Assembly: GCA_028864975.1 (NCBI GenBank)
Contig: JAGWLG010000019.1
Coordinates: forward strand, 1-61,982
DNA length: 61,982 nucleotides
Direction: 5' to 3'
Source: Thermoplasmata archaeon
Lineage (GTDB): Archaea > Thermoplasmatota > Thermoplasmata > Lutacidiplasmatales > UBA184
Positions 5,039 to 22,815 of this stretch are shown here, piece after piece (the stretch's first letter is position 1; each line of letters opens with the position of its first letter). Under the pieces are notes generated by a model. That model made no database searches. It was not told where the DNA came from and was given only the letters and a program-made list of their open reading frames with translations. A program made the position numbers and the translations under genes.

Positions 5039-6073
5039 TCACGGGCTCGTGGGCCAAGGGAACGCCTCCCCGTAGCTCTCGAGGGCCCGTCGCTGTCGAC
5101 GAGGGTTGGACTCGAGGTACTTCATCGTCGTGGCGAGGTTCTCGTGCCGCAGGAACTCCTGGACCGTGCGGTAGACCCCGTCGCGCGAGGCGCTGGGGCT
5201 CTCCAGGAGGCTCTCTTCCAGCATGGTCGCCCCTGAGCGGCGCAGCATGTGAGAGGAGAGGTGGAGGGGGCGCCCCCTCGCGGCCACCCTCACCTCGATG
5301 GCGTGGACCGCTGCGTCGAGAGCGGTTTCGGAGTACGGACGGAGCCCGTGAGCTCTCTTCGAGACCATGACGAGCGCCTCGGGGGGCACGGGACACTCGG
5401 GGTAGAGGAGACGTCCCTCCTCCACGACCGCCTCCCGGTGCACGAGGTACCGGGCGAAGACCGAAGCGAAGGACGGGTGCAACGGCGAATAGGCCAGCTT
5501 GGGCGACCCGCGTCCCTTCCCCCGGATCAGGAGTCGCCCCTGGGCGAGGTCCACGTCCTCCACGCGCAGCCGACGCCATTCGACCCGGCGCATTCCCTGG
5601 CCCAGTCCGAGCATCGCGAGGAAGGCGAGGAGTGGGTCCTCCTGGACCGCTTCGAGGACGGCCCTCGCCTCCTCCCGGGAGAGCCAGCGGACGTTGCGCC
5701 GGGGAAGGGGCGGAGGGATGCCGGCTTCCTCGAAGATCGCGCTCCCCGCGAACCGAGCGAAGTCGGAGATGATCCACAGGCTCCACGTGTCGTGGCCCCG
5801 GAACGCCTTGATCCTCGCCGCATCCTCGAGCGTCCAACGGGCAGGGTCCAGGGGTCGGCCCTCGGACCTGAGGAGGAGAAGGAGCTGGACGACGACCCGG
5901 TGGTAGGACTGGATCGTCCTCTCCACGCAACCCTTCCTCCTCTTGCTCGCGATCCATCTCGTGAAGACCTCCGGGATAGGCACGCCGGGGGCCACGACGC
6001 AACGGTCGGTGGGGCCGGTTCCTGGCGGCGCCGCAGGGCGGTCCTCGGCTTGAGGGAGCGACGGGTTCGACAT
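5039..6073 (-). CDS. Tyrosine recombinase/integrase (array copy 1)
   Basis: Catalytic residues present: GMRRVEW (R), RGKG (K), SHMLRR (H-x-x-R), FLRHENLATTMKYL (H, Y). Confidence 0.92.
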   Translation of the reverse strand: MSNPSLPQAEDRPAAPPGTGPTDRCVVAPGVPIPEVFTRWIASKRRKGCVERTIQSYHRVVVQLLLLLRSEGRPLDPARWTLEDAARIKAFRGHDTWSLWIISDFARFAGSAIFEEAGIPPPLPRRNVRWLSREEARAVLEAVQEDPLLAFLAMLGLGQGMRRVEWRRLRVEDVDLAQGRLLIRGKGRGSPKLAYSPLHPSFASVFARYLVHREAVVEEGRLLYPECPVPPEALVMVSKRAHGLRPYSETALDAAVHAIEVRVAARGRPLHLSSHMLRRSGATMLEESLLESPSASRDGVYRTVQEFLRHENLATTMKYLESNPRRQRRALESYGEAFPWPTSP

Positions 6074-6099: not shown

Positions 6100-6136
6100 A
6101 TCAAGCTCGAGGGGTGACGGGGGACCTCGACGGTGC
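6100..6136. repeat. Conserved integrase-upstream motif, copy 1 (ATCAAG-N20-CTCGACGGTGC)
   Basis: 26 nt from the integrase start codon at 6073. Confidence 0.85.
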
Positions 6137-6215
6137 CCCCCCAGCTCGACGGAAGGGCGGGCGCGGGCCATGGGGACGCCCGAAAGTGCACGTCGGTGCC
6201 CGTCGTCACGACGGG

Positions 6216-7643
6216 TCAGTCCCCCGGCCTGCCATCGGTCACCGGACGCGTATCGACCCCCGTACCGCGCGCGGCGAGGCTCCCGAGCGCCTCCAGATCC
6301 AGAACGAACCCACCCCTCTGGGCGACGAGGGCGCAGGCCTCTCGCGTAGCACCCCCGCGAGCCACGATGAAAGGACGAACAGGCCGCCGGTCGGTCCGCT
6401 CCATCAGGGAGGACTTTCGCACAAGGTCCCGGACGAGCCCCTCCCCGACGGGACGAGCGCTCCACTTGACCTCGCCACACCAGATCTCCTCCGGGCCCGA
6501 GACCACGAGGTCGATCTCCTCCCCCACGCGATTCCACCATCGACCGATCCGATCGAAGCGTAGCGGATGCCCTTCGACCTCGCTCCCCTGCCGCGACTCG
6601 AGCACGTCGCGGACCACCGCTTCGAAAGCTCGTCCGACGTGGTCCTCCAGGTCGCGCTGAACTCGGGATAGGACCACCGCCTGGCCGTGCTGCTCCAGCA
6701 GGTGACGGTTCGGTCGGACGAAACGGAAGTAGAAACTGAAGAACGGGTCGGAGAGCTCGTAGCGGGTCCGCCGTTCCAGACCACAGACCGGGGATTCGGG
6801 GCGGATCAGGTCGAGGTCCTTCCCGAGGGCCTCGAGATACGGCGTGAGACCCCCTGCACGGACCCCGGTCCGATGCTCGAGCTCGGAGAGCGAGGTGGAC
6901 CCCTGTCCGAGCGCGGCAAGGATGGAGCTGTACCGGTCCAGCGTTCGGAGTTCGGTCAGCAGCAGTTCGTAAGGTTCGTCACGAAAGCGCGCGTCCTTGG
7001 AAAGATAGCAATCCAAGATCGCCTCGTCGAGCCCCTTGCCCACGCTCGGCTCATGGTAGGCGGGAGTCCGTCCGAAGACCGCGAAGCGTCGGACACGGGC
7101 GTCCTCGGGTTCGTGGGGGTAGAGCAACCTGACGCCCGGGTAGCTGAAGGGCCGAAGGTGAAGGTCGTGGGTGAAACGGCCGTAGAGGGGGCCCGTGCGA
7201 TATCGGGTGAGGCGCAGCATCATTCCGATGCTGCTACCGCACAGGACCAGGTGGGGCCCATGCTCCTTCCACCCGAGGTCCCACGTTCGTTGCAAGACCC
7301 CCGCCACGTGCAGATCGCGGTCGGTGAGGTTCTGGAACTCATCGATGACGATCACGCTGGGGTCGGCCCGCTCCAGCGCGTGGAAGAACTCCGGCCAGGT
7401 GGAGAAGGGACCCACGGGACCCCTCACCTGGTCGGCCAGTTGGGTCGTGAGGTCCGTGATCTGGGGGAGCGTGTCACCGGGGGCGGCGGACAGGTAGAGC
7501 CCGCGGGTGGAGCGTAGGATGCGCTGGAGGAGCTCGGTCTTGCCTACCCGACGCCGCCCATACACTCGAATGAGCTGCGGTCGGGGCGCCCGGAGCGCAT
7601 GTTCCAGGAGGGCAAGGTCCTCCGTGCGGTTGTAAAATTCCAT
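6216..7643 (-). CDS. Archaeal ATPase (ATPase_2/COG1672-type) with wHTH and C-terminal PD-(D/E)XK (DUF234-like) domain, copy A
   Basis: FYNRTEDL, GRRRVGKT, IDEFQ, LCGSS, FGRTPAY, DPFFSFYFRFV, RWW..GEEIDLV..GEVKW. Confidence 0.9.
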   Translation of the reverse strand: MEFYNRTEDLALLEHALRAPRPQLIRVYGRRRVGKTELLQRILRSTRGLYLSAAPGDTLPQITDLTTQLADQVRGPVGPFSTWPEFFHALERADPSVIVIDEFQNLTDRDLHVAGVLQRTWDLGWKEHGPHLVLCGSSIGMMLRLTRYRTGPLYGRFTHDLHLRPFSYPGVRLLYPHEPEDARVRRFAVFGRTPAYHEPSVGKGLDEAILDCYLSKDARFRDEPYELLLTELRTLDRYSSILAALGQGSTSLSELEHRTGVRAGGLTPYLEALGKDLDLIRPESPVCGLERRTRYELSDPFFSFYFRFVRPNRHLLEQHGQAVVLSRVQRDLEDHVGRAFEAVVRDVLESRQGSEVEGHPLRFDRIGRWWNRVGEEIDLVVSGPEEIWCGEVKWSARPVGEGLVRDLVRKSSLMERTDRRPVRPFIVARGGATREACALVAQRGGFVLDLEALGSLAARGTGVDTRPVTDGRPGD

Positions 7644-7703
7644 AACTTAGATTATAATGCACCATATTCTAAATAATGTTGCCTAACGGCCCGCCCTGAC
7701 CGC

Positions 7704-8714
7704 TCAGCAGGGGTTGGGCCATGGGAACACCTGCCCGTACCGTTCCAGCGCACTCCTCTGCCTCCGTGGGTTCGATTCGAGGTACCTCATCGTCGTGGCG
7801 AGGTTCTCGTGGCGGAGGAACTCCTGCACCGCTCGATAGACCCCGTCGCGGGAGGCCTCCGGGCTCTCGAGCAGCGCTTCCTCGAGCATGGTCGCCCCCG
7901 ACCGTCGGAACATGTGGGAGGAGAGATGGACGGGCCGTCCCCGGGCCGCGGTTCGCTCCTCGATCGCGTGCACCAACTGGTCCAGGGCCGTGTCCGAGTA
8001 GGCCCGCAGCCCCTGGGCCACCTTCGAGAGCATCACGAGGGCTTCCGGAGGGACCGGGCTCCCCGGATAGCGTAGGAGCGCCTCGTTGACGAGCTCCTGC
8101 CGATAGGCGAGGTACCGCTCGAAGATGGCCGGGAACGCCGGATGGAGCGGAGAGGAGACGATCTTGGGGGTCGCCCTCCCCTTCCCCCGGATGAGGAGCC
8201 GCCCGTTCGGAAGGTCCACGTCCTCCAGGCGGAGACGCCTCCACTCGACCCGGCGCATCCCGTGCCCCAGCCCGAGCATCGCAACGAAGGACAGAAGAGG
8301 GTCGTCCGAGACGGCTTCCAGGACGGCGCGCACCTCGTCGCGGGTCAGCCATCGTACGTTCTTCCGCGCGGGGGCCGGAGGGATCCCGGCTTCATCCAGG
8401 ACCCTGCTGCCGGCGAACCGGGCGAAATCGGCGACAACCTGCAAGCTCCGGCTGTCCTCACGCCGGGACTGTTTGATGCGCTCGGCGTCTTCCAAGGTCC
8501 AATCGGTGGGGTCGAGCGGACGTCCTTGGGCCCGAAGGAAGAGCAGGGCGTGAACCACCACCCGTTGGTACTCACGGACCGTGGAGGGAACACAACCCTT
8601 CCGCCGCTTGCTCTCCAGCCACCGTAGGAGGGTCGGAGGGACCGGGGCGGAGGAGCACGGCGCGGAGGGCGCAAAGGGTTGCGTGGCGGCGGAAGGAGGG
8701 GTGGGGTCGGACAT
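7704..8714 (-). CDS. Tyrosine recombinase/integrase (array copy 2)
   Basis: Same R-K-HxxR-H-Y set. Start moved to ATG 8714 (MSDP), matching the 25-26 nt motif spacing of the other copies. Confidence 0.92.
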   Translation of the reverse strand: MSDPTPPSAATQPFAPSAPCSSAPVPPTLLRWLESKRRKGCVPSTVREYQRVVVHALLFLRAQGRPLDPTDWTLEDAERIKQSRREDSRSLQVVADFARFAGSRVLDEAGIPPAPARKNVRWLTRDEVRAVLEAVSDDPLLSFVAMLGLGHGMRRVEWRRLRLEDVDLPNGRLLIRGKGRATPKIVSSPLHPAFPAIFERYLAYRQELVNEALLRYPGSPVPPEALVMLSKVAQGLRAYSDTALDQLVHAIEERTAARGRPVHLSSHMFRRSGATMLEEALLESPEASRDGVYRAVQEFLRHENLATTMRYLESNPRRQRSALERYGQVFPWPNPC

Positions 8715-8739
8715 GCCCCCGCTTGGTACGGCCGCAGGT

Positions 8740-8775
8740 ATGAAGGTCGACACGACGCGTCGTACTCGACGGTGC
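8740..8775. repeat. Conserved motif, copy 2 (ATGAAG-N19-CTCGACGGTGC)
   Basis: 25 nt from the integrase 2 start codon. Confidence 0.85.
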
Positions 8776-8907
8776 TCCTATTTCGTGAGGGAGGGACGGA
8801 GAAGGTCTTGGAGCGCCCCGGCGTTCGCCGCGACCCGTGATGACGTTCGCCGACACCGCCAAGACGGCGCCAGGGGCCCCGTGGGCCGGTCTTCTCCCCC
8901 TTCCCTC

Positions 8908-9128
8908 TCACGGCGGAGCCGGCCAGGGGAACACCCTGGCGTACGGATCGAAGGCCTTCCTCTGTCGCCGAGGGTTCGACTCGAGGTACCTCATCGTCGT
9001 CGCCAGGTCCTCGTGGCGGAGGAACGTCTGCACCGTCCGATAAACCCCGTCGCACGAGGCCTCAGGGCTCTCGAGGAGCGTCTCCTCGAGCAGGGTCGCG
9101 CTCGAGCTGCGGAACATGAGGGAGGAGG
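8908..9128 (-). pseudogene. Integrase C-terminal remnant
   Basis: MFRSSSATLLEETLLESPEASCDGVYRTVQTFLRHEDLATTMRYLESNPRRQRKAF, with no N-terminal half. Confidence 0.85.
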
Positions 9129-9271
9129 GCGCCAGGCACCGCCCCGGAGCGGCGACGTTCTCCTCGAGGCATGCCCCCACTGGTCCCGCGTGCGGTCCGA
9201 GCGGGTCCGTGGCCCCTGCGCCCTCCGGGACGGCATCGCGAGCGGTGCGGCGAGGATGCTCGTTCCGGACC

Positions 9272-10669
9272 TCAAGACCTGCCCGCTCGCTCTCTCCTCC
9301 TCTGCTCCGCCATCAGGCGTTGCAGCCCCACAAGGTCCAGCCAGAAGCCCCCCTTCCTCTCCAGAAGGGCTTGGGCCGCCCTGGAGAGCTCGCCCCGGGA
9401 GACGATGAAGGGCCTCCACGCCTGGGGGGAAGGGATAGGCAGAAGCCGCGCCTTCGCCAGCAACCGTTGGACGAGGTCCTCCCCCAGGTCCCTGTCGCTC
9501 CACTTGACCTCACCCACCCAGACCTCGCTCGGTCCGGCCGAGACCACGTCGATCTCCTCGCCCCGGCGGTCCCACCAGCGCCCGATCTGGTCGAACCGGT
9601 GCACGTGCCCGTTCACCTCTCGGGCCTGGGCGAGGATCTGGAGGACGACGTCCTCGAAGACCCTCCCCACGTAACTCTCGAGCCCTTCTTCGATCAACTC
9701 CCAGAGGCGGTCCTCCCGACCTAGCTCGACCAGGTCGAACCGTTCCGAGACGAACCGGTAGTAGAACCGGAAGAACGGGTCCAAGAGCTGGTAGCGCCCC
9801 AGCCGCTTCTTGCCGAGAACGGGTTGCTCGTGCCGCACCAGGTCCACGTCTCGCGTCAGCGAAGCGAGGTACCAGCCCAGCCCCCCTTTCGGGACCCGAA
9901 GGCTCGTTTCGAGGTCTCCCAGCCCCTGGGGGTTCTGGGCGAGCCGTTGGAGGATGCCGTGATACCGAGCGGGCTCCCGGAACTCCTGCGTCAGGATCCT
10001 CTCCGGTTCCTCCACGAGCGCGCCCTGAGGGCGGAGCAGGGTCCGGCGTACCGCCTGCTCCAGCGTTCCGCCGACCGAGAGCGACTGGTAGTACGGAACT
10101 CCGCCGAAGACGGCGTAGCGGCGGATCCGGTCCTCCTCGGAAAGCCCCTCATGGAACTCTCTGGCGTGAGCGTAGGGGAGTGGCCGGAGATGCAGATGGT
10201 GCAGCACTCTTCCGAACAGGGGGGCCCTCCCTCGAACGAGGCGCTGCATCATCCCTATGCTGCTGCCGCAAAGGATGAGGTTCGGTCCATGCTCCTTCCA
10301 CCTGCGGTCCCATCGAAGCTGGATCTCGCTCTCGACCCCGACCCCGAGCTCCATCGCGTGCTGGAACTCGTCAAGGACGACCAGTCGAGGAACTCGGGTC
10401 TCGAGGTCGTCGAACAGGTCCGAGAAGGACCGGTACGGGCCCACGTTCTGTCGGAGTTGGGCCGAGAGCTGCGCCGCGAGGGTTTCGAGAGCGGTGGCCT
10501 GGTCGGTCTCGGGGACCACCAGGAGAAGGCCGGGTGTGCCCCTCAGCAGCTGGTGCAAGAGTTCGCTCTTGCCCACTCGGCGCCGACCCAGGATGCGGAC
10601 GAGCTGAGGGCGGTCCTTCGAGAGGTCCTCCTGGAGGGACCGGAGCTCGGCCTCCCTCCCAATGAACAT
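9272..10669 (-). CDS. ATPase-wHTH-PD-(D/E)XK (DUF234-like) protein, copy B
   Basis: MFIGREAEL, GRRRVGKS, LDEFQ, FGGVPYY, RWWDRRGEEIDVV..GEVKW. Start at ATG 10669. Confidence 0.9.
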   Translation of the reverse strand: MFIGREAELRSLQEDLSKDRPQLVRILGRRRVGKSELLHQLLRGTPGLLLVVPETDQATALETLAAQLSAQLRQNVGPYRSFSDLFDDLETRVPRLVVLDEFQHAMELGVGVESEIQLRWDRRWKEHGPNLILCGSSIGMMQRLVRGRAPLFGRVLHHLHLRPLPYAHAREFHEGLSEEDRIRRYAVFGGVPYYQSLSVGGTLEQAVRRTLLRPQGALVEEPERILTQEFREPARYHGILQRLAQNPQGLGDLETSLRVPKGGLGWYLASLTRDVDLVRHEQPVLGKKRLGRYQLLDPFFRFYYRFVSERFDLVELGREDRLWELIEEGLESYVGRVFEDVVLQILAQAREVNGHVHRFDQIGRWWDRRGEEIDVVSAGPSEVWVGEVKWSDRDLGEDLVQRLLAKARLLPIPSPQAWRPFIVSRGELSRAAQALLERKGGFWLDLVGLQRLMAEQRRRERAGRS

Positions 10670-10703
10670 ATGTAAACAACTCCAGTAGGATATTTTAGAA
10701 TAT

Positions 10704-10970
10704 CTAATATCCCCGCGGGGCCGTTCCAGGTTGCTCCTCCGGCGCTGACGGGGACGCCGGCCAAGGGAACGCCTCCCCGTAGCTCTCGAGGGCACGTCGC
10801 GGTCGACGAAGGTTCGACTCGAGGTACCTCATCGTCGTGGCCAGGTTCTCGTGGCGGAGGAACTCCTGCACCGTCTGGTAGACCCGTCGCGCGAGGCTGG
10901 GGGCTCTCGCGGAGCGTCTCCTCCAGGAACGGGGCCCCTGAGCGCCGGAACACGTGCGAGGTGAACTGCG
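10704..10970 (-). pseudogene. Frameshifted integrase C-terminal remnant
   Basis: VFRRSGA..LEETLRESP in one frame and VYQTVQEFLRHENLATTMRYLESN in another. Confidence 0.85.
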
Positions 10971-11065
10971 AGGGCCGCTCCCAGGAGACGACTGCCTCCC
11001 CTTCGACTCAGGCCGAGGGAAAGGACGAGAAGTGGAAGGTCTTCGCGACGGAGATCGCGGGCCTC

Positions 11066-11470
11066 TCACTGGAGGTTGCGGCGGGCCCACTCAAGGACCC
11101 TCGAGGCCTGGGCGACGGTCTTCGCGGCCTGCCCGGAGGTGAGCCGACGGGACTCGTACTCCACGATGTTCTTGAGCGTAAGAACCTCGTGTACCTGGAT
11201 CACCTTGACGCTCCAATCTGGGAGCTTGGCCTGGTCGAGGAGAAGGACGACCTCGTGATGGTCCTGCCCTCGCGACCGGCGTCCAAGGTGATAGACACAG
11301 AGCGCATCACAAGATGAGATCACACAGTGCACGGCGTTGAGCGCCGCCGAATCGTAGGCTCCCTCGCTGAGAGCCCGGTCCATCCATCGCCCGAACTCCT
11401 CGGCCTTCGCGAGGTGGGCCCGGAAGTTCTCGCGGGGCACGCTCGCCCAGCGAAGGGTCCCTCGGGTCAC
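11066..11470 (-). CDS. HEPN-domain protein (MNT-HEPN pair)
   Basis: YDSAALNAVHCVISSCDAL..GQDH..KNIVEY pattern; 4-nt GTGA overlap with the upstream MNT gene. Confidence 0.8.
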   Translation of the reverse strand: MTRGTLRWASVPRENFRAHLAKAEEFGRWMDRALSEGAYDSAALNAVHCVISSCDALCVYHLGRRSRGQDHHEVVLLLDQAKLPDWSVKVIQVHEVLTLKNIVEYESRRLTSGQAAKTVAQASRVLEWARRNLQ

Positions 11471-12060
11471 GCAGCCCTCCGGACCAGGACCCCGTCGCGC
11501 TCGATCTCGGACAGGAGCGCGGGGTTGGGGGGCCTTCGCAGCTGGGACGGGCCATAGACCAGGGAGGTGAGCGTGTTCCCGTACCTTCGGGCAACTTCCA
11601 ACGACAACCCACCGAGCCGGGAAGAGACCTCGTCCACGGCAGCGTCCGAGCGGGCCTCGACGTAGAAGTCGATGTCGCTGCCCTCCCGATCTTCCCCTCT
11701 CGCCACGGAACCGAAGAGGACCGCGCGGGTCACGAGACCCCAGGGGACCCTGCCTCCGAGGAACCGACAGAGCTCTTCACGCGAAGAGCTCTCCTCCTCG
11801 AAGAGCTTGCGGAGCCGAGAGGTCCACACATGCGAGGGTGAGAGGCTCCAGACCTGGGCGCGTCCGACCACCTTGGCGCGCACGATCCCGGTTTCCTCAA
11901 GGTCCCGAAGAGAACGGCTCAGGGCTGGTCCGGTCACGCCGGAGGCTCGAGAGAGCTCGCGCCCGGTGAACTCGCGCCTCGAGGATCGAAGGAGGACGCG
12001 CAGGAGTTTCACTTTGGACGGCGGGGAGAGAAGGGTGTCCAGACCCAGATGGAACCTCAT
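11467..12060 (-). CDS. HTH-fused minimal nucleotidyltransferase (MNT)
   Basis: N-terminal HTH (FTGRELSRASGV) and LFGSVARGEDREGSDIDFYV (GS-x10-DxD). Confidence 0.88.
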   Translation of the reverse strand: MRFHLGLDTLLSPPSKVKLLRVLLRSSRREFTGRELSRASGVTGPALSRSLRDLEETGIVRAKVVGRAQVWSLSPSHVWTSRLRKLFEEESSSREELCRFLGGRVPWGLVTRAVLFGSVARGEDREGSDIDFYVEARSDAAVDEVSSRLGGLSLEVARRYGNTLTSLVYGPSQLRRPPNPALLSEIERDGVLVRRAA

Positions 12061-12086
12061 GATACACAGACATTCCACATGACATA

Positions 12087-13142
12087 TTAATATTCACCTA
12101 ACGGCTCCGGGGTCGAGGGCCACGGCAACGCCTGGCCAAACTGGTCGAGAGCGCGTCGCTGACGACGGGGATTGGACGCCAAGTACCTCATCGTTGTGGC
12201 CAGGTTCTCGTGGCGGAGGAACTCCTGCACCGTTCGATAGACCCCGTCGCGCGAGGCTTGCGGGCTGTCGAGCAGGGCCTCCTCCAGAAGGGTCGCCCCC
12301 GACCTTCGGAACATGTGGGAGGAGAGGCGGACAGGTCGCCCGCGGTCAGCGACCCTCTCCTCGATGGCGTGCACCAGTTCGTCCAGAGTGGTGTCCGAGT
12401 AGGCCCGGAGCCCTTGCGCCACGTTGGACAGGAGAACGAGCGCCTCGGGGGGCACCGTGCTCCCGGGGTACCGCAGGAGCGATTCCTGGACCAACCGTTG
12501 ACGATAGGCAAGGTACCGCTCGTAGATCGCGGGGAAGGCGGGGTGGAGAGGCGACCATGCGAGCTTGGGCGTGGCACGGCCCTTTCCCCGGATGAGGAGG
12601 CGTCCTTGGGCAAGGTCCACGTCCTCCAGGCGGAGCCGCTTCCACTCGACCCGTCGCATCCCCTGTCCAAGCCCGAGGATGCCGACGAACGAGAGCAGGG
12701 GGTCGTCCCGGACCGCCTCGAGGACGGCTCGTGCCTCGTCCTGGGTCCGCCATCGGACGTTCCGGGGGGCAGGGGGCGGCGGGTTTCCGACCTCCAGAAA
12801 GACCCGGCTCCCCGCGAACTGGGCGAAGTTCCCGAGGATCTGCAGGCTCCAGTTGCTGTTGCCACAGAACCGCTTGATCCGCTCGGCATCTTCCAGGGTC
12901 CAACCTGCAGGATCGAGAGGACGAGCTTCGGCTCGAAGGAAGAGCAGGACCCGGACCACCACCTGTCGGCACTCACGGACCGCGGAGGGAACACAACCCT
13001 TCCGCCGCTTGCGCTCCAGCCATCGGTGGAGAACCTCAGGGGGAGGACCAGGAGGCGGGACCTTGCCCGGACCCGCGAGGGCGACCGCCGAGGACGGCTT
13101 CGGGGGTGGCGTTACGGTCGTGAGTGGGGCTGGGTCGGACAC
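12087..13142 (-). CDS. Tyrosine recombinase/integrase (array copy 3)
   Basis: GMRRVEW, RGKG, SHMFRR, FLRHENLATTMRYL; GTG start. Confidence 0.92.
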   Translation of the reverse strand: MSDPAPLTTVTPPPKPSSAVALAGPGKVPPPGPPPEVLHRWLERKRRKGCVPSAVRECRQVVVRVLLFLRAEARPLDPAGWTLEDAERIKRFCGNSNWSLQILGNFAQFAGSRVFLEVGNPPPPAPRNVRWRTQDEARAVLEAVRDDPLLSFVGILGLGQGMRRVEWKRLRLEDVDLAQGRLLIRGKGRATPKLAWSPLHPAFPAIYERYLAYRQRLVQESLLRYPGSTVPPEALVLLSNVAQGLRAYSDTTLDELVHAIEERVADRGRPVRLSSHMFRRSGATLLEEALLDSPQASRDGVYRTVQEFLRHENLATTMRYLASNPRRQRRALDQFGQALPWPSTPEPLGEY

Positions 13143-13168
13143 GCCCCCACAAGGTACGCCCTCAGGCT

Positions 13169-13204
13169 ATGAAGGTCGACACGAAGCGCCGTACTCGACG
13201 GTGC
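13169..13204. repeat. Conserved motif, copy 3
   Basis: ATGAAG-N19-CTCGACGGTGC, 26 nt from the integrase 3 start codon. Confidence 0.85.
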
Positions 13205-13336
13205 TCCTCCTCCGTGAGGGAGGGGCGGAGCGGGTCTTGGACCACCGCGACGTTCGCCGCGACCCGCAATCACGTTCGCCGACACCGCCAAGTGGGCGCC
13301 CGAGGCCCCGTGGGTCGCTCTTCTCCCCCTTCCCTC

Positions 13337-14317
13337 TCAGGGCGGAGCCGGCCAGGGGAACACCCTGGCGTACTGATCGAAGGCCTTCCTCTGCCTCCGG
13401 GGGCTCGACTCGAGGTACTTCATCGTCGTCGCCAGGTTCTCGTGCCGAAGGAACTCCTGGACCGTCCGGTACACGCCGTCGCGGGACGCCTGGGGACTGT
13501 TGAGCAGCGTTTCCTCCAGCAGGGTCGCCCCCGAGCGGCGGAACATGTGCGTCGAAAGGTGGACCTCCCGTCCGCCCTCCCGTACCTTCCGCTCGATCGA
13601 GCGGACCAAACGGTCGATCCCCGCGTTGGTGTAAGCGTGCAGCCCGTGCGCGAGCTTGGAAGGCATCAGCAGGGCCTCCGGGGGGACGTTCGAGCCCGGG
13701 AAGCGGAGCTGGGCGTCCCGGATGACCTGGTCTCGGTAGGCGAGGAACCGGGAGAAGACCGAAGGGAACGCGGGATGGAGCGGAGCGAAGGCGAGCTTCG
13801 GCGTCGCCCGCCCCTTCCCTCGGATCAGCAGGCGCCGGTGGACCAGGTCGACGTCCTCGACCCTGAGGCGTTTCCACTCCACCCGTCGCATCCCCTGTCC
13901 AAGGCCCAGGAGGGCCACGAAGGAGAGCAACGGGTCGTCCCGGGTCGCCTCCAGGATCGCCGCGACCTCTTCCCGGGAGAGCCAGCGCACGTGGCGGCGT
14001 GGGGGGACCGGAGGGATCCCCACCTCCTCGAACACGCGGCTCCCCGCGAACCGGGTGAAGTCGGCGATGATCGAGAGGGACCAAGGATCCTGATGACGGA
14101 TCTCCCGGATGCGGAGAGCATCCTCCACGGTCCACCGGGTCGGGTCCGCGACCCTTCCCTCCCCCCTCAGCGCGATCAGGACCCGGTCGACCTCCCGCTC
14201 GTACCGTCGGAGGGTCGTCGGGACGCATGCTTTCCTCTGCTTGGACTCGAGCCATCGTCGGAGCAGGGAGAGCTCCGGGGGTAGCGCTGGGACCGAGAGT
14301 GGGGGTGGATCGGACAT
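13337..14317 (-). CDS. Tyrosine recombinase/integrase (array copy 4)
   Basis: GMRRVEW, RGKG, THMFRR, FLRHENLATTMKYL. Confidence 0.92.
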   Translation of the reverse strand: MSDPPPLSVPALPPELSLLRRWLESKQRKACVPTTLRRYEREVDRVLIALRGEGRVADPTRWTVEDALRIREIRHQDPWSLSIIADFTRFAGSRVFEEVGIPPVPPRRHVRWLSREEVAAILEATRDDPLLSFVALLGLGQGMRRVEWKRLRVEDVDLVHRRLLIRGKGRATPKLAFAPLHPAFPSVFSRFLAYRDQVIRDAQLRFPGSNVPPEALLMPSKLAHGLHAYTNAGIDRLVRSIERKVREGGREVHLSTHMFRRSGATLLEETLLNSPQASRDGVYRTVQEFLRHENLATTMKYLESSPRRQRKAFDQYARVFPWPAPP

Positions 14318-14343
14318 GCCCCCGCATGGAACGCTGACGGGCC

Positions 14344-14379
14344 ATCAAGGTCGTCGCGGCCCGAAGTACTCGACGGTGC
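14344..14379. repeat. Conserved motif, copy 4
   Basis: ATCAAG-N19-CTCGACGGTGC, 26 nt from the integrase 4 start codon. Confidence 0.85.
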
Positions 14380-14479
14380 CTCTCGGCTTCGGATACTCGG
14401 GAAGCGCTGCGGCCTCTTCCTCCCGGCCCCCGTCCGGCTCATCGGCTGGAGAGGTCCAAGACAGGTGGAACGGTCCTGG

Positions 14480-15850
14480 TCAGGCGGGCGCCCCCGGTGG
14501 GAACCGCCGACCGAGCTCCCGGGATATCCTCTGAGGGTCGAACAGGACGACCTCCGCCGCGCCCCGAAAGTTGAACCCGCTCTTGGAGAAGAGGACGAAC
14601 CGGAGCGGCTTGCGATGGGGCAAGGCCTCCGAGGTCTCCTGGAGGCGGCCGAGGTCCCGAGGGCCCATCGGCGCCCTTGACCACTTGCACTCACCCACGT
14701 ACAGCGCCTCCTCCGTCTCGACCACCAGGTCGACCTCGCGAGGCTCCACCTTCCCAGAGGGGAGGCGGACCCTCCCCCACCATCTCCCTGACGACACCAC
14801 CCCGGAGGCCCGGAGGTGGTCCAGGAGGAACTCCCTGCAGAACTGCTCGAAGCGCCGGCTCACGAACTCCTCCACCAGCTCCGCGCGGGGAGGTTCGACC
14901 CGACCGTAGACATGGGCGAACCAGAAGGCGAGAAGGTTGTCGTGGATCGCGTACAACCCCTTCTTGCTTCGTGCGGGACGCTCGCCGAACGGCACGTGCC
15001 GGTCGACCAGCTTGAAGTCGTGCCGGAGCGCGATCAGGTACTTCGAGAGCGTCGTCTGGGCGACGCCCAGGCGACCCGCGAGCTCGCTCGGGGCCACCAA
15101 CCCACCGCTGATCGCCTCCAAGATCGCGAAGTACTTGTGGTAGGCCGCCCCGAACTCCTGACGAAGCACGTTCTGCCCCTCCTCTCTGAGGGGCGCAGCG
15201 ACATCGAAGAAGAGCTCACGGACGATGTCCTGTCGAGGGAGGCGCTCCAACAGCTCGTAGTAGTACGGTATACCGCCGAGGAGGCAGGCGTGGCGGATCC
15301 GGGCGTCGGGGTCGGCGATCCCCAGGTCGCGCTGGATCTCCCAGACGACCGACAGGGGCAAGGGCTCGACGACCAGAGCGGCCTGGGCCCTGCCGAAGAG
15401 GGGCGCCTTCTGCCTCGTGAAGATGCGGTCCATCATCCGGACGTAGGACCCGGAGAGCAGGACGATCTTGTTCGAGGACTCCCGGTGCCTCTCCCACGCC
15501 CGCTGGAACTCGTAGGGGAGCGACGCGTGGACCTCCAAGAGGTTCGGGAACTCGTCGACGAAGAGGAAGCGCGATCGGCTTTTCGTAAAGAAGTGGTCCA
15601 GCGCCTCCCGAAGGTGCTGGAACGATGGAGCGGGTACCTCGTGCAGCGCCTCCGCGAAGTCTTGGGCGACCTGGCGTTCCTCGTTGGGGACCACCAGCAC
15701 GCTGACGGCGTCCCGTCCCTGGAGGAACTGACCCACGAGACGGCTCTTCCCCACGCGCCGGCGCCCGGTGAGGACCACGAGGGACGCCCCATGGTGGGAA
15801 GCGATGCGTTCAAGGGCCTCCAGCTCCTTCTCACGGTCGTAGAATCGCAT
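14480..15850 (-). CDS. ATPase-wHTH-PD-(D/E)XK (DUF234-like) protein, copy C
   Basis: MRFYDREKEL, GRRRVGKS, VDEFP, LGGIPYY, RWWG..EVDLV..GECKW. Confidence 0.9.
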   Translation of the reverse strand: MRFYDREKELEALERIASHHGASLVVLTGRRRVGKSRLVGQFLQGRDAVSVLVVPNEERQVAQDFAEALHEVPAPSFQHLREALDHFFTKSRSRFLFVDEFPNLLEVHASLPYEFQRAWERHRESSNKIVLLSGSYVRMMDRIFTRQKAPLFGRAQAALVVEPLPLSVVWEIQRDLGIADPDARIRHACLLGGIPYYYELLERLPRQDIVRELFFDVAAPLREEGQNVLRQEFGAAYHKYFAILEAISGGLVAPSELAGRLGVAQTTLSKYLIALRHDFKLVDRHVPFGERPARSKKGLYAIHDNLLAFWFAHVYGRVEPPRAELVEEFVSRRFEQFCREFLLDHLRASGVVSSGRWWGRVRLPSGKVEPREVDLVVETEEALYVGECKWSRAPMGPRDLGRLQETSEALPHRKPLRFVLFSKSGFNFRGAAEVVLFDPQRISRELGRRFPPGAPA

Positions 15851-15921
15851 ATTATCCATTTATTGGATAATCCTTGTACTGGATAACTCTTGTGGAGAGC
15901 CCCAAGGGGAGGGCCGGGCGC

Positions 15922-16095
15922 TCACGTGGTGGTGACCCACGGGAAGGCCTTCCCGTGCTGCTCTAGGGCCTTCTTCTGCCGCCGGGGGCTGGCCTCGAGG
16001 TGCTTCAGCGTCGTGGCCAGGCTCTCGTGGCGGAGGAACTCCTGGACCGTGCGGTAGACCTCGTCGCGCAAGGAGCTGGGGCTCTCCAGGAGGGC
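15922..16095 (-). pseudogene. Integrase C-terminal remnant (catalytic Tyr replaced by His)
   Basis: Manual translation: ALLESPSSLRDEVYRTVQEFLRHESLATTLKHLEASPRRQKKALEQHGKAFPW. Confidence 0.8.
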
Positions 16096-16096
16096 T

Positions 16097-16275
16097 CTGG
16101 TCAGGCCGAGGCCCTCGGTGGGAACCGCCGACCGAGCTCCTGGGAGATCCTCTGAGAGTCGAACAGGAGGACCCCCGGCGCGCCCCGAAAGTCGAACCCG
16201 CTCTTGGAGAAGAGGACGAACCGGGGCGGCTTGCGATGGGGCAAGGCCTCCGGGATCTTCTGGAGGCGGCGGAGG
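16097..16275 (-). pseudogene. Duplicated 3' end of ATPase copy C
   Basis: Close DNA match to about 14476-14655 (ctggtcaggc...gtgggaaccgccgaccgagctcc...gcttgcgatggggcaaggcctccg). Confidence 0.85.
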
Positions 16276-16355
16276 GAGGATGGACTTGTGTACCTAGGAC
16301 ACGGGCCCGTACAGACGGGTCCACGGGCCCCCGCTCGGTGAGCGGGTCTGCGCTA

Positions 16356-17489
16356 TCACCTTGGCGACGACAGGCGGCGTCGTAGCTCGTGGAAGTAGGC
16401 GATGACGGGGGCCTTCCGGAGCTCATAGCGGGCGGGACCGACCTTGGCGATGACGCTGAGCCGCACGAGACGCCCCACGTAGGCGTAGTTCACCCCAAGC
16501 TCCAGGATGTCCTTCGTCCGGAAGGTGGTCTTCCCCGAACGTGCCAGACGAACGAAGGCGGCCACGTCCCCGTCGGAGGCATTTTGGAGCTCGCGCTCGA
16601 ACCACGCGGCCCCCACAGAGAGCGCGTTCGGGACGGCAGCGTCCACGTCGGGCGCACGCAACGCCCTTCCCTCCTGCCAAGCGGCGTAGGCGAGGCATTT
16701 CACCAGGTACGGATACCCATGCGAGAGCTCGTGGATCCGCTGGATGGACTCCGCGGTCCACGGGTCCGCGCCCCGCCTCCCCTTGAGAGGGGTCTCGAGG
16801 GCTTCCCGCGTCTCCCCCGCCGAGAAGGACTCCATGTCGAAGACCGCCCCCGAAAAGATCCGGGCCACCGGCGAATAGTCGTGGCTCGCCAGCCGATGCA
16901 GGAGCTCGGGTCCGGCGCCCACCGCCAGCAGGATGGGCACCGGGCTGTCCTCTTCCACGATGGACTTGAGCGTCCGTACGGCGTCGGGGCTCAGCCGTTC
17001 GGCATCGTCGATGGTCACCAGAAGGAGCGGCACCCCCGCGAGCGCGCTGAGGGTCTCCCGAAGGAGCGTCAGCGGATTGGTGGGGCTGCCGGCGGGCGCC
17101 TTCCCGACGCTCACCGAGGTACCCAGGACCGAGACCTGGACCCTGGTCAAACGGTCCCAGACCTTGTGCCAACGAGAACCTTCCAGCTTCTTCCTTCGCA
17201 CGAAGCTACGGGCCTCTTCCGCGACCGCCTCGAGCAACCGGTCCCCCGAGAGCGACTCCTGCAACGGCACCTCGACCACGATGGAGCCCGGCAGAGCTCC
17301 CTCGGAGAGGGATCGGATCTTCTTCAGGGCCGAGGTCTTTCCGCTTCCCCTGTGGCCGTGGACCAGGATGGCCGTACCTCGCCGATACCTGCTCGCGGCA
17401 TCGAGAGCCTCTCTCGTCCGCTGGATCAGGAGGGCGCGCCCAGCGAACTGGTCCGGAGGTGTCGGGTGCTGAGGATCGTAGGGGTTCAC
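16356..17489 (-). CDS. P-loop NTPase (AAA_16/STAND-like) with C-terminal wHTH
   Basis: NPY..P..FAGR, GHRGSGKT, TIDDAE, SHGYPYLV; no nuclease motif seen. Confidence 0.8.
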   Translation of the reverse strand: MNPYDPQHPTPPDQFAGRALLIQRTREALDAASRYRRGTAILVHGHRGSGKTSALKKIRSLSEGALPGSIVVEVPLQESLSGDRLLEAVAEEARSFVRRKKLEGSRWHKVWDRLTRVQVSVLGTSVSVGKAPAGSPTNPLTLLRETLSALAGVPLLLVTIDDAERLSPDAVRTLKSIVEEDSPVPILLAVGAGPELLHRLASHDYSPVARIFSGAVFDMESFSAGETREALETPLKGRRGADPWTAESIQRIHELSHGYPYLVKCLAYAAWQEGRALRAPDVDAAVPNALSVGAAWFERELQNASDGDVAAFVRLARSGKTTFRTKDILELGVNYAYVGRLVRLSVIAKVGPARYELRKAPVIAYFHELRRRLSSPR

Positions 17490-17579
17490 GGGTCCGGGAC
17501 GGTCAAGTCGTTATATAATCTTATATGACAATTTGACGCGAACGAAGAAAGATCGCCCTGCCCCCGCAGGTCCCAGAGC

Positions 17580-17684
17580 GGTCGTCGGGACGCACGCCTT
17601 CCTCTGCTTGGACTCGAGCCATCGTTGGAGCAGGGAGAGCTCCGGGGGTAGCGCTGGGACCGAGAGTAGGGGTGGGGCGGACAC
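17580..17684 (-). pseudogene. Integrase N-terminal remnant (copy-4-like)
   Basis: SVPALPPELSLLQRWLESKQRKACVPTT, truncated after about 35 codons. Confidence 0.85.
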
Positions 17685-17710
17685 GCCCCCGCAAGGTACG
17701 CGTGTCGGGT

Positions 17711-17746
17711 ATCAAGGTCGTCGCGGTGAGAGGTACTCGACGGTGC
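17711..17746. repeat. Conserved motif, copy 5
   Basis: ATCAAG-N19-CTCGACGGTGC, 26 nt from the remnant GTG start. Confidence 0.85.
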
Positions 17747-17885
17747 TCCCTCGGCCTTGCCCGGCGGCTCCCTGCTTCCTCTCGGCGTTCTTGTGCCGCC
17801 ATCCTGAACGCGAACTCCGCGGGCGGGTGCCCCGCACGGGCCCGACCCTTCCCCCTGCCGCCGGGGGATGGTCCGCGACGGTCGC

Positions 17886-18560
17886 CTACTTCCGACGGAT
17901 CGGCCGGGTCCCCGACGACGACCGGGCCACCTTCTCCATGCTCTTGGCCAGCCGGAGCAGCGCCGCGGTCTGCTGGACGGTGGCCCTCGTCTGGGCGCGC
18001 GGGTCCTTCTCGATGAGCCCGAGCCTCTTCCCGATCATGCCGTAGGCCACGCTCATCTCGTCGAAGCGATGGATGGTGTCCCGGTGCAGGAGGAGGGTGG
18101 CCTGGTTGCCCTTCTCGACACTGGCCCCGACCTTCTCGACTTTTGCTCCTAGGGACTCGAACCCCCGCTTCGTCTCGCTGGAGAGATGCTTCGTCTCCTG
18201 CGTGAGCACGTCCAGCGCTACTCCCGCGTACTCCATCCGCTCCAGCGTCTCGAGGTGGACCTCCCCGCGCTTCACTCGGAAGTCCGCGAGCTTCTCCTCC
18301 GCCGGGAGCTCGTCTCCCTCCCGGGTCACCGCCGTCGGGACGCTGCGGCCCTCGGGCTTCGTGATGGCCTGCCGGAACTCCTCGAGCGTGTCCGCGGGCC
18401 CCTGGACTTCGATAAGGACCCGGTCCTCGTTCGTCTCGTCATTCAGAACGCGTCCCGACAGCCCACGCAGGTCGGCCTCCCGCTTCACTCGCTGCCGATA
18501 GCCCACCAACTGGACGGTGCCGGTGGCCACCAGCTTCCAGCGCACCACGGGCTCGCTCAT
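17886..18560 (-). CDS. Acylphosphatase-domain protein with C-terminal coiled coil
   Basis: GTVQLVGYR and G.V.N resemble the AcyP motifs; helical C-terminal half; SD-like AAGGAGG upstream. Confidence 0.75.
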   Translation of the reverse strand: MSEPVVRWKLVATGTVQLVGYRQRVKREADLRGLSGRVLNDETNEDRVLIEVQGPADTLEEFRQAITKPEGRSVPTAVTREGDELPAEEKLADFRVKRGEVHLETLERMEYAGVALDVLTQETKHLSSETKRGFESLGAKVEKVGASVEKGNQATLLLHRDTIHRFDEMSVAYGMIGKRLGLIEKDPRAQTRATVQQTAALLRLAKSMEKVARSSSGTRPIRRK

Positions 18561-18650
18561 GCTCCCTCCTTCGACCGCGGACCGAGGTTATAACCGTTCA
18601 TCCCCAGCGCGGCACCGCTAGATGCCATCGGTGAGACCCGATCGCCCCGG

Positions 18651-18687
18651 ATGAAGTTCACGGGGAGGCGAGGGACCTCGACGGTGC
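18651..18687. repeat. Conserved motif, copy 6 (no integrase behind it)
   Basis: ATGAAG-N20-CTCGACGGTGC. Confidence 0.8.
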
Positions 18688-18804
18688 CCCCCCTGTCCCG
18701 GGACTGGATCGGACCCAGAGCGGCCAGGGAGGAGGACCGGTGACGAGGGCCCGAGGGAGGCCCACAACTTCAGGAGGGTGGGGCAGCCTGCGCGGCGTGT
18801 TCGG

Positions 18805-19236
18805 CTACCGAACTCCCGCAGCTCCCGCCAGATGCGGCAGTCCGTTGAGCCCCGCCTGCGCGAAGTTCCGGTCCAGGGTCAGGGCATCCGAGATGCCCAG
18901 GTCGCGCATCACGAGAAAGCTGGTGCAGTCCGTCAGGCTCCACCGACGGTCCTGGTGCGCGAGCATGAGATCGAGGGCGCGCTCGAAGTGGTCGTCCGAG
19001 ACCTTCACCACCTCGTAGTTCCGGGAGGTGCGGAGCTGCTCCCGGAGACGATGGACCGCGTCAAGCCCCACCTTCATTCGGAGCAGGGTGTACGTCTCGT
19101 CCAGCACGTAGTCGGTGGTCAGGACCCGTCCGAACTCGCCGGCCAGGATCCTTCGGGAGAACCGGAGAAGCTCGCGATGCCATTGCTCCCGCGGGTCGGC
19201 CAGTGCGACCCACGCGCTGGTGTCGCAGAAGATCAA
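18805..19236 (-). CDS. vapC: VapC-family PIN-domain toxin
   Basis: DTSAW, DYVLDET, SLTDC, TLDRNF acidic tetrad; overlaps the antitoxin stop. Confidence 0.9.
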   Translation of the reverse strand: MIFCDTSAWVALADPREQWHRELLRFSRRILAGEFGRVLTTDYVLDETYTLLRMKVGLDAVHRLREQLRTSRNYEVVKVSDDHFERALDLMLAHQDRRWSLTDCTSFLVMRDLGISDALTLDRNFAQAGLNGLPHLAGAAGVR

Positions 19237-19475
19237 GTCGCCCCCCCATAGAGGAGATCGTCGTGGTGCTGCGCATGATTGGTCGCCGCGCCCCTCCGCC
19301 GCTCGACGAGAGGGAACGCGAGGAACGCGGGGTCACCGGGAGCTACACGGTCGTGGAGCAGACGCTCCCTTAGCGCGACGCGGACCCACTCCTGGATCGT
19401 CTTCCCTTCCGCTCGGGCCTTGCGTCGGAGAAGCTCGTACTCGGCCTCGGGAAGACGGGCTTGGAGCAGCTTCAT
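19233..19475 (-). CDS. CopG/RHH-type antitoxin (VapB-like)
   Basis: MKLLQARLPEAEYELLRRKARAEGKTIQEWVRVAL...HDDLLYG, directly upstream of VapC. Confidence 0.82.
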   Translation of the reverse strand: MKLLQARLPEAEYELLRRKARAEGKTIQEWVRVALRERLLHDRVAPGDPAFLAFPLVERRRGAATNHAQHHDDLLYGGAT

Positions 19476-19509
19476 ACAACATACAAAATGAAGTCGCGTA
19501 TATGAGCCC

Positions 19510-19673
19510 CTCCCGTCCCCCCTCAGCGAGATCCGGACCCGGTGGACCTCCCGCCCGTACCGTCGGAGGGTCGTCGGGACGCACGCCTTCCTCTGCTTGG
19601 ACTCGAGCCATCGTTGGAGCAGGGAGAGCTCCGGGGGCAGCGCTGGGACCGAGGGTGGGGGTGGGTCGGACAC
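19510..19673 (-). pseudogene. Integrase N-terminal remnant (copy-4-like), in frame with the antitoxin
   Basis: SDPPPPSVPALPPELSLLQRWLESKQRKACVPTTLRRYGREVHRV within ORF 19233..19688. Confidence 0.85.
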
Positions 19674-19699
19674 GCCCACCGAGCGCACGCGTGGGGGGT

Positions 19700-19735
19700 A
19701 TCAAGCTCGACGCGATGCGAGGTTCTCGACGGTGC
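19700..19735. repeat. Conserved motif, copy 7
   Basis: ATCAAG-N19-CTCGACGGTGC, 26 nt from the remnant GTG start. Confidence 0.85.
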
Positions 19736-19778
19736 ATCGTGGGCGGCCTCCTCCCCCCCTCCTCGGCGGTCCTGCGGG

Positions 19779-21161
19779 TCACCCCGGAAGCAGGTCCGCC
19801 AGCGAGAACGCCGCGCCCCCCTCTCGTTCCAGGAAGTCGCGAATTCGGGGAGAGGGTTCGCCACGGACCACGACGAAAGGCCGGACCCGTCGACGCCCCC
19901 GCTCTTCGATGAGACCTCCTTTCCACACCAACCGACGCACATCGTCCTCCGTGACCCCGCGGGGCGACCATTTCACCTCTCCGACCAGGAGTTCCTCTTC
20001 CCCGACGGCGACCACGTCGATCTCCTCGCCCGTGCGGCTCCACCAGGACCCGATGTCGTGGAAGTCGAGCTTGAACGGTCCCAGCGTGCTCCCCCGCTTC
20101 TCGAGGAGGAGCTCCCGGACGACGGTCTCGAACACCCGGCCCACATGGCCTTCCAGGTCCTTCGCGAGGCTCGCCCAGGCCCCGTCGATGTCGCCAAGCT
20201 CCAGGCGGCGTTCCTGGGGCACGATCAACCGATAGTGGAATCCCAGCGATGGGTCCGCGAACTCGTACCGGGCGCGTCGTGCCCGCCCCGCGATCGGACC
20301 GACCCGCCGGATCATGTCCAGGTCCTCCTCAAGGACCCGAAGAGAGCGGGAGAGCGTGCCCTGACGGACGCCGAGCGCATGCTCGAGGTCCGGGAGCGAG
20401 CGAGCCCCCCTTCCGATCGCCTGGAGGACGGAGGCGTAGCGCTCGGGAGCGCTCACCCCCTCTCGAAGAAGGGTACGCGGCTCGTCCCGAAGACGAGCGC
20501 TGTCCGAAAGGTACGCCGCGGTGACCGCCTCTTGGAGGCTCGGCCGCTCCCGCGTCAGCCGGTGGTTGAAGGGACTCCGCCCGAAGACCGCGAACCGGGC
20601 GACCCGGTCCTGCTCCGGAAGGCCGGGATAGAACTGTCGCACCGCGGGGTACGTCAACCCGCGGACCCGAAGGTCCGCCGTCAATCGACCGAAGAGCGGC
20701 CCGGTGCGACCTCCCACCAGTTGCCGCATCATTCGAATGCTGCTCCCGCATAGGACGAGGTGGGTTCCAAGGCGCCCGTGCTTGGCATCCCAGCGATGCT
20801 GGAGGCGGGTACCGACGGAGTGGTCCCCAGCCCATAGGAACGGGAACTCGTCCAGGACGGTCACCTCGGGGGAGAGCCGCTCGATCTCGTCGAGGAGGTC
20901 GTCCCAGCTACGGAGGACCGGCGCGCCCCGACCGGTGAACTGGGCGATCTGGGCGGCCAGCAGTTCCCGCTGGACGGGGGGCTCGCCCTCGTCCGCCACA
21001 AGGTAGAGGCCGTCCCGTCCCCGCAACGTCTCTCGCAGGAGGGCGGTCTTTCCGACCCGACGGCGTCCATAGACCCGCACCAACTGGGGCTCCCGGGAGC
21101 CCAGCACTCGGCGGAGTTCGCCGAGCTCACGTTCCCGGTCGACGAATGGAAATTCTTTCAT
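19779..21161 (-). CDS. ATPase-wHTH-PD-(D/E)XK (DUF234-like) protein, copy D
   Basis: FVDREREL, GRRRVGKT, LDEFP, LCGSS, SWWSRTGEEIDVV..GEVKW. Start at ATG 21161. Confidence 0.9.
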   Translation of the reverse strand: MKEFPFVDRERELGELRRVLGSREPQLVRVYGRRRVGKTALLRETLRGRDGLYLVADEGEPPVQRELLAAQIAQFTGRGAPVLRSWDDLLDEIERLSPEVTVLDEFPFLWAGDHSVGTRLQHRWDAKHGRLGTHLVLCGSSIRMMRQLVGGRTGPLFGRLTADLRVRGLTYPAVRQFYPGLPEQDRVARFAVFGRSPFNHRLTRERPSLQEAVTAAYLSDSARLRDEPRTLLREGVSAPERYASVLQAIGRGARSLPDLEHALGVRQGTLSRSLRVLEEDLDMIRRVGPIAGRARRARYEFADPSLGFHYRLIVPQERRLELGDIDGAWASLAKDLEGHVGRVFETVVRELLLEKRGSTLGPFKLDFHDIGSWWSRTGEEIDVVAVGEEELLVGEVKWSPRGVTEDDVRRLVWKGGLIEERGRRRVRPFVVVRGEPSPRIRDFLEREGGAAFSLADLLPG

Positions 21162-22813: not shown

Positions 22814-22815
22814 CT

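Follow-up and report, generated by a model that had tools for sequence, protein, structure and literature searches.

Repeated modules with a probable promoter and a candidate att core in an array of small integrase-led units of a Thermoplasmata archaeon

Overlap between a recombination site and the promoter of an integrase gene is known from bacterial prophages, which also provide the precedent for integrase autoregulation: the attL site of KplE1 in E. coli (IntS/TorI module) overlaps the promoter of intS, whose product exerts negative autoregulation (Panis et al. 2010, PMC2951348). In archaea, integrated elements stacked in tandem at one locus have been documented (Badel et al. 2021, PMC8371274), the known stacks consisting of plasmids or viruses of 10–40 kb at tRNA genes, often with SSV-type integrases (PMC8371274). 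Here, we describe a 13.6 kb array of seven small integrase-led units, arranged head to tail, on contig JAGWLG010000019.1 of a Thermoplasmata metagenome-assembled genome (3.6 Mb, 67% G+C, about 90% complete; a thermosome gene is encoded, consistent with an archaeon). The whole 62-kb contig (61,982 nucleotides (nt)) was analysed and is called the window. Every unit opens with a copy of a module of ~37 bp, which we interpret, with about an even chance of being right, as an integrase promoter joined to a candidate att core.

The 11-mer CTCGACGGTGC occurs on the plus strand of the window exactly seven times, at 6126, 8765, 13194, 14369, 17736, 18677, and 19725, so that an identical direct-repeat core stands at every junction in one and the same orientation. 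When one mismatch was allowed, 12 matches were found versus 3.7 expected, a number reached in 0 of 100 shuffles. All the genes between 4.4 and 21.3 kb are carried by the minus strand, and, read on that strand, the module consists of GCACCGTCGAG, a gap of 19 or 20 nt, the hexamer CTTSAT, and then the start codon. The seven copies with an invariant 11-mer and a varying spacer that the original prediction had listed were all recovered exactly, with a gap of 19 nt in five and 20 nt in two. The distance from CTTSAT to the start codon was 25–26 nt in six copies (three ATG and three GTG) and 22 nt at site 18677; the predicted spacing thus stood for six copies, but only four of these lead into full integrase genes, the other two leading into 5′ integrase stubs. 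Position −3 relative to the 11-mer was a G in 7/7 copies, so the invariant block extends to ~14 nt. The 11-mer was 100% conserved over the seven copies, and the following ~50 columns were about 30% invariant. The composite sites are the following:

6100–6139, minus strand: site 6126, with a G-run, GCACCGTCGAG, N20, and CTTGAT; the ATG of integrase 5039–6073 is 26 nt on.
8740–8778, minus strand: site 8765, with GGA, GCACCGTCGAG, N19, and CTTCAT; the ATG of integrase 7704–8714 is 25 nt on.
13169–13207, minus strand: site 13194; the GTG of integrase 12087–13142 is 26 nt on.
14344–14382, minus strand: site 14369; the ATG of integrase 13337–14317 is 26 nt on, and the junction is orthologous to that of genome G011.
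17711–17749, minus strand: site 17736, ahead of a 5′ integrase stub.
18651–18690, minus strand: site 18677, of the G-run type and without integrase, followed by a 21-codon open reading frame (ORF) and then the acylphosphatase-like gene 17886–18560.
19700–19738, minus strand: site 19725, ahead of a 5′ integrase stub.

The composite proved to be restricted to such units, as had been anticipated. The bare 11-mer has 20 exact copies in the whole genome, and the composite GCACCGTCGAG-N18-23-CTTSAT has seven in 3.6 Mb, 7/7 of them inside the array. Among 186 genomes of the order, the true composite was found elsewhere only in G011, which belongs to another genus; the remaining matches fell in conserved coding sequence unrelated to integrases. 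Pattern scans of genome and metagenome contigs returned, among the matches listed, chance occurrences in unrelated bacteria, with a related integrase in 0 of the 240 loci fetched, and no relative of the array integrase was found in the viral contigs searched. A look-alike with a G-run, the exact 11-mer, and a CATTAAGA box was present at G000 C121:39286–39296 (L294, about 6286), where a Nop10-like gene encodes its variable C-terminal tail (gene order L44e, eIF2-alpha, Nop10-like, ArsR-family gene, aTrm56). It was discarded as a unit or a proven attB, as it lies in a coding tail and is not conserved in same-genus genomes; we read its sequence as a chance match, which may nevertheless be a secondary target site.

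Upstream of the 11-mer, similarity among the copies ends, as predicted: positions −40 to −4 showed a mean pairwise identity of 0.28, the same as that of random window pairs (0.28), except for the pair 8765/13194, in which both sites stand behind the same 133-nt integrase tail. This break is located at −64 from the ATG. The inverted arms reported earlier were present as TCGA...TCGA in four copies, but none of the seven sites folded better than shuffled sequence (z-scores from −0.74 to +0.73), and attC-like hairpins were ruled out on the same values.

Regarding the promoter half, the statistics were drawn from 519 genes of this genome with an unambiguous first start codon. A sharp maximum of hexamers with 5/6 A/T or more was seen at −31 to −23 from the start codon, and a maximum of Shine–Dalgarno-like words at −16 to −10; transcripts without a leader and with a TATA box near −27 are thus common in this genome. 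CTTSAT occupies positions −31 to −26, that is, within the A/T-rich peak and at the place of a leaderless archaeal TATA box (centred ~26–27 nt before the start), as had been proposed; TTSATA is 5/6 A/T in five copies. No Shine–Dalgarno sequence was found at a usable distance before the integrase starts, the sole G-rich run ending 1 nt from the ATG, a distance too short for that function. The array cargo genes have clear, strong TATA boxes at that same distance. CTTSAT is, by its position, probably the TATA box of the integrase genes, although a weak one.

The G011 contig that carries the composite is colinear with positions 13349–16098 of the window at 83% nucleotide identity, and the encoded proteins share 89% (ATPase) and 79% (integrase) of their amino acids. 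From the ATPase stop to about codon 25 of the integrase, ~200 nt could not be aligned, and only the 11-mer, CTTSAT, and their spacing were kept (11-mer to CTTSAT and CTTSAT to start, 22/24 nt in G011 versus 19/26 nt in the window). On this comparison of sequences, both the 11-mer and CTTSAT are judged to be under purifying selection. A housekeeping protein of the ArsR family is 60–65% identical between the two genera versus 89% for the ATPase, and because of this difference the block was probably moved horizontally.

The att half was approached through the relatives of the integrase, a family encoded in 28 of the 186 genomes (this tally and the motif-alignment rows L018 and L030 include the unpublished genomes G161–G163). 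A Gibbs search placed the box yCAyCGTTCAsc 40–50 nt before the ATG of most of the distant orthologues, in unrelated contexts, and the 11-mer of the window aligns with this CAyCGTTCA box. In G127 and G039, box plus integrase lie between msrB and a methyltransferase gene, and both are absent from the close relatives G183 and G160. In the latter two, the empty site is an intergenic TC(A/G)TGTTCACC and stands where the occupied genomes have their right junction, whereas the occupied locus has the box TCATCGTTCACC as its left junction; the empty site of G160 and the right junction of G039 each match this box at 11/12 positions with one gap. Base-exact boundaries for the G127 insertion were sought and abandoned, since local alignment scores outside the shared 50 nt were not significant.

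In addition, a locus behind one glycosyltransferase gene is common to G138 and G089; it holds box and integrase in G138 and, in G089, GCACCGTTCA, a G-run, an AT-rich promoter, and a toxin–antitoxin pair with weak ParE/RelE-like matches. The integrase gene of G054 (L049, G054:C2 about 2815–2824, compared with L046 of G127) lacks its first ~155 codons, the deleted stretch being bounded by the upstream box CGCACCGTTC and, inside the integrase gene, by an identical 10-mer where GKGRTVPK is encoded. Two same-orientation integrase copies share a contig in five genomes, and both an integrase–vapBC unit (in G171) and an integrase-only unit (in G127) recur outside the window. In the tree, all four array integrases are closer to a relative from elsewhere than to one another, so the paralogues are old or were acquired separately; their 11-mers are nonetheless identical. 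The comparison of G149 (L039) with G175 (L047) was rejected as boundary evidence, as it shows a block rearrangement around the integrase whose breaks are not at the box. As a separate observation on that pair, blocks 11100–12162, 15240–17395, and 17678–18327 of L039 are reordered in G175 with no inversion, and the distance from one break to an inverted box copy at 17436 is ~40 nt.

From these comparisons, the reading of the 11-mer as an att core at the unit junction is plausible, with roughly as much to be said for it as against it. Of the interpretation first put forward, att site plus integrase promoter, the promoter half has thus stood up in silico, and the att half is plausible on indirect support.

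From high to low coordinates, the array starts with an integrase 3′ fragment and a DUF234 ATPase gene, after which site 19725 leads an integrase stub and vapBC, and site 18677 leads the acylphosphatase-like gene. Site 17736 is followed by an integrase stub, an inserted AAA_16 ATPase gene, an integrase 3′ fragment, and a DUF234 ATPase gene, and site 14369 by a lone integrase with a 133-nt tail. Behind site 13194 come an integrase, a helix-turn-helix (HTH)–nucleotidyltransferase gene, an integrase 3′ fragment, a DUF234 ATPase gene, and a further integrase 3′ fragment with the 133-nt tail. At the low end, site 8765 heads an integrase and a DUF234 ATPase gene, and site 6126 an integrase and a vapB remnant, next to an epimerase gene. 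An integrase 3′ end precedes all four DUF234 ATPases and both vapB copies; a unit therefore consists of site, integrase, and cargo, with the site as its first feature. In the four full units and in both stubs, the integrase gene comes first and points away from the junction (site, 50 nt, integrase). In total, the array holds four full integrase genes and no fewer than five partial ones, and its features are as follows:

5039–6073, minus strand: integrase (344 aa, Phage_integrase family, Xer-like).
7704–8714, minus strand: integrase (336 aa).
12087–13142, minus strand: integrase (351 aa, GTG start).
13337–14317, minus strand: integrase (326 aa), which with its 133-nt 3′ tail (13205–13336) forms the integrase-only unit.
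17576–17684, minus strand: 5′ integrase stub of ~36 codons; an AT-rich promoter and the AAA_16 ATPase gene 16356–17489 come next.
19505–19673, minus strand: 5′ integrase stub (~58 codons), followed by vapB (about 19254–19470) and the PIN/vapC gene 18805–19236.
8908–9312, minus strand: 3′ integrase fragment with a 133-nt tail (8776–8907) as in the integrase-only unit 13337.
10746–11048, minus strand: 3′ integrase fragment immediately upstream of the DUF234 ATPase gene 9272–10795.
15922–16190, minus strand: 3′ integrase fragment immediately upstream of the DUF234 ATPase gene 14480–15859.
21296–21452, minus strand: 3′ integrase fragment immediately upstream of the DUF234 ATPase gene 19779–21233.
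6216–7643, minus strand: cargo ATPase (ATPase_2 + DUF234) with its own TATA box ~25–30 nt before the ATG.
9272–10795, minus strand: cargo ATPase (ATPase_2 + DUF234).
14480–15859, minus strand: cargo ATPase (ATPase_2 + DUF234), 89% identical to its G011 orthologue.
19779–21233, minus strand: cargo ATPase (ATPase_2 + DUF234).
11467–12078, minus strand: cargo gene for a winged-helix HTH plus minimal nucleotidyltransferase.
4747–5020, minus strand: vapB-like remnant behind integrase 5039, 82% identical to 19249–19522 and without the promoter and start of that copy.

The TATA box of ATPase 6216–7643 is separated by 60 nt from the stop of integrase 7704. The 133-nt tail holds two GGCGAACG(T/C) repeats 22 nt apart (8821–8851 and 13250–13280, minus strand); as general arm-type sites, the 9-bp direct repeats GGCGAACGT were rejected, being confined to the two copies of this tail. 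At site 18677, the 21-codon ORF (18560–18625, minus strand) begins 22 nt past CTTCAT, and its stop codon and the start codon of the acylphosphatase-like gene overlap in ATGA, the latter gene having a GGAGG Shine–Dalgarno sequence; this ORF may encode a leaderless leader peptide with translational coupling.

Beyond the array, the tRNA-Pro and tRNA-Cys genes (24057–24133 and 25719–25791, minus strand) are 1.6 kb apart with an AAA_14/DUF4143 ATPase gene between them, and the same distance is ~15 kb in G013 and ~9 kb in G015, both of the same genus. These lengths mark the interval as a variable hotspot; the array of integrases begins below tRNA-Pro. Between the array and tRNA-Pro lie two tightly coupled plus-strand genes (21872–23502; 313 and 228 aa), in a stretch of lower G+C (0.63), for which no significant Pfam family was found. 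On the other side, a gene for an NAD-dependent epimerase/dehydratase (3301–4377, minus strand) adjoins an integrase unit, as one does beside a unit of this integrase family in G171 (L040 8867–9871), and this neighbourhood may be a recurrent insertion setting in glycosylation gene clusters.

In the mechanism that we propose, a unit would comprise the site and an integrase, with at most two cargo genes (such as a DUF234 ATPase or vapBC), several units having since decayed. CTTSAT(A) would act, given its position, as a weak TATA box of a leaderless integrase mRNA, and the G-R-N-GCACCGTCGAG block 20 bp upstream as the putative att core for the Xer-like integrases, marking the junction at which one unit presumably ends and the next begins. 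As the junction site is just upstream of the promoter, an integrase bound to it would also affect its own transcription, by analogy with IntS and attL of KplE1. Recombination through a shared core would maintain its identity in seven copies despite an integrase identity of 60–72%. Units and cargo would behave as mobile or exchangeable modules across genera.

Several observations weigh against this proposal. No empty site for this array was found in same-genus genomes, which are too diverged and lose synteny below the tRNA-Pro gene, and neither an excised circle nor a strain polymorphism was found for it. In G127, divergence of the intergenic DNA is too great for the left boundary to be fixed with single-base precision. 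As for the promoter, CTTSAT is poor as a TATA box (4–5 of 6 A/T) and is not conserved in distant orthologues, such as that of G127. The remaining difficulties favour the strongest competing explanation, namely that the module is promoter and operator only. In that case, the 11-mer would bind a regulator (the integrase or a host factor) upstream of the TATA box without any strand exchange, the array would have arisen by tandem duplication of an integrase–ATPase unit followed by decay and insertions, and the homology break would merely reflect fast-diverging 3′ tails of the upstream genes. We regard this as possible but, on the whole, unlikely. It would account for the fixed distance from module to start, which holds even for the integrase-less copy 18677, and for the sharing of the whole ATPase–site–integrase junction by G011 and the window as one block, so that this junction has not recombined since their divergence and was inherited or moved whole. 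Likewise, in the two blocks made up of an integrase 3′ end, the 133-nt tail, the site, and an integrase, divergence is the same to either side of the site, which is compatible with an old segmental duplication, and the site shows no fold and only a weak dyad (GTCGA arms 13 nt apart) without the clean 11-6/8-11 layout of simple recombinase sites.

An operator alone, on the other hand, would not explain why the sequences that meet the site at one and the same base are such dissimilar 3′ tails: in two cases that of the integrase, in three that of an ATPase (not alignable), and in one each that of vapC and of the acylphosphatase-like gene. Nor would it explain that the homologous box marks boundaries of presence or absence and of alternative content in the relatives, or that the 11-mer is identical in integrase paralogues that are old or represent independent lineages. 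In addition, −61 to −51 is an unusual place for the box of an archaeal repressor.

An integron-like cassette platform, in which integrases capture and shuffle cassettes at attC/attI-type sites, is quite improbable and, as membership, largely refuted. In its favour, the array is a same-orientation series of defence-type and toxin–antitoxin genes with a repeated site between them, and its integrases are Xer/IntI-like, with a short extra RYP-containing segment where IntI has its extra domain; in the PDB, they match XerA of Pyrococcus and Thermoplasma best and then IntI4 (residues 119–183 only). However, when the defining features of integrons (taken from PMC9668308) were considered, three failed: the IntI-specific domain, a folding attC, and a single intI with promoterless cassettes. 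Against the integron-integrase model TIGR02249 the array integrases reached 39 bits, over residues 123–182 only, versus a cut-off of 265, and against PRK15417 21 bits versus 435; the sites form no hairpins, the cassettes have their own promoters, and there are at least four integrase genes instead of one, each with a site 5′ of it on the same strand.

Even less probable is a reading in which the host XerA acts on the sites as dif-like targets, the units being Xer-exploiting elements stacked at them. Stacked arrays of such elements at dif are known in bacteria, and a canonical XerA gene (35549–36325, minus strand; 228 bits against the equivalog NF040815, cut-off 220) lies 15 kb from the array. 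The units, however, have their own recombinases, which do not exceed 54 bits against the same model, and the site lacks an 11-6-11 dyad and occurs only beside this integrase family. Finally, SSV-type (“suicidal”) integration, with att inside the integrase gene and the N- and C-terminal pieces as the two halves left, is refuted: both 5′ stubs and 3′ fragments are present in the array, but the stubs end at ~36 and ~58 codons and the fragments begin at other, differing points, there is no adjoining tRNA gene, and the invariant site lies outside the ORF.

If the 11-mer is a crossover site, as in the promoter plus att interpretation, these units would be among the smallest self-mobilising archaeal units (an integrase with or without one gene) and would show how Thermoplasmata stockpile and exchange DUF234/STAND ATPases and toxin–antitoxin genes. 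The overlap of attL and integrase promoter with autoregulation, known from bacteria, would extend to archaeal TATA promoters. A site of about 40 bp and simple Xer-like enzymes would allow easy in vitro testing and could offer a recombination tool for GC-rich archaea. A broader proposal, which we consider doubtful, is that the array represents an undescribed kind of self-contained cassette platform, in which every cassette brings its own Xer-like recombinase and a shared junction and promoter site of ~37 bp. Such a platform would stack and swap cassettes of defence, toxin–antitoxin, and ATPase genes and pass them from one archaeal genus to another, as a functional analogue of integrons that uses double-stranded sites and many recombinases, with the integrase-only units of ~1.1 kb as the minimal mobile form. 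Should the site be only promoter and operator, the array would be an ordinary paralogue family with a well-conserved regulatory box.

Compared with known systems, we read the combined promoter and att module as an archaeal variant of the attL/integrase-promoter overlap, its unusual feature being the minimal integrase-led cassettes. As in KplE1, the integrase gene is at the edge of the unit, and the putative junction site is within ~60 bp upstream of its start, adjoining or overlapping the promoter, a likeness that predicts coupling of recombination to integrase expression. Unlike KplE1, the array has an archaeal TATA-type promoter for leaderless mRNA instead of a sigma-70 promoter, neither a tRNA target nor a recognisable directionality factor, a Xer-like integrase without an evident arm-binding domain, and units of 1.1–3 kb in place of a prophage. 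With the archaeal tandem elements it shares the grouping of several related, equally oriented integrase-bearing units at a single locus, together with the decay of integrases and the exchange of modules; it differs from them in its minimal units (integrase alone or with one or two genes) and in a junction core that is not in a tRNA gene, one 11-mer being common to seven junctions.

The likeness to integrons, archaeal ones included (Ghaly et al. 2022, PMC9668308), is found in the repeated recombination-type site between same-orientation accessory genes, in a cargo rich in toxin–antitoxin and defence-like genes, and in an Xer/IntI-related recombinase. The array departs from them in lacking the IntI-specific domain by curated model, in its unfolded sites, in promoters that belong to the cassettes, and in having a recombinase per unit. 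Finally, as in XerA/dif arrays, elements are stacked at one short site, and XerA provides the nearest solved or curated relatives of the array integrases; in contrast to those arrays, the site does not have the form of a dif-type dyad, and a true XerA is encoded separately in the genome.

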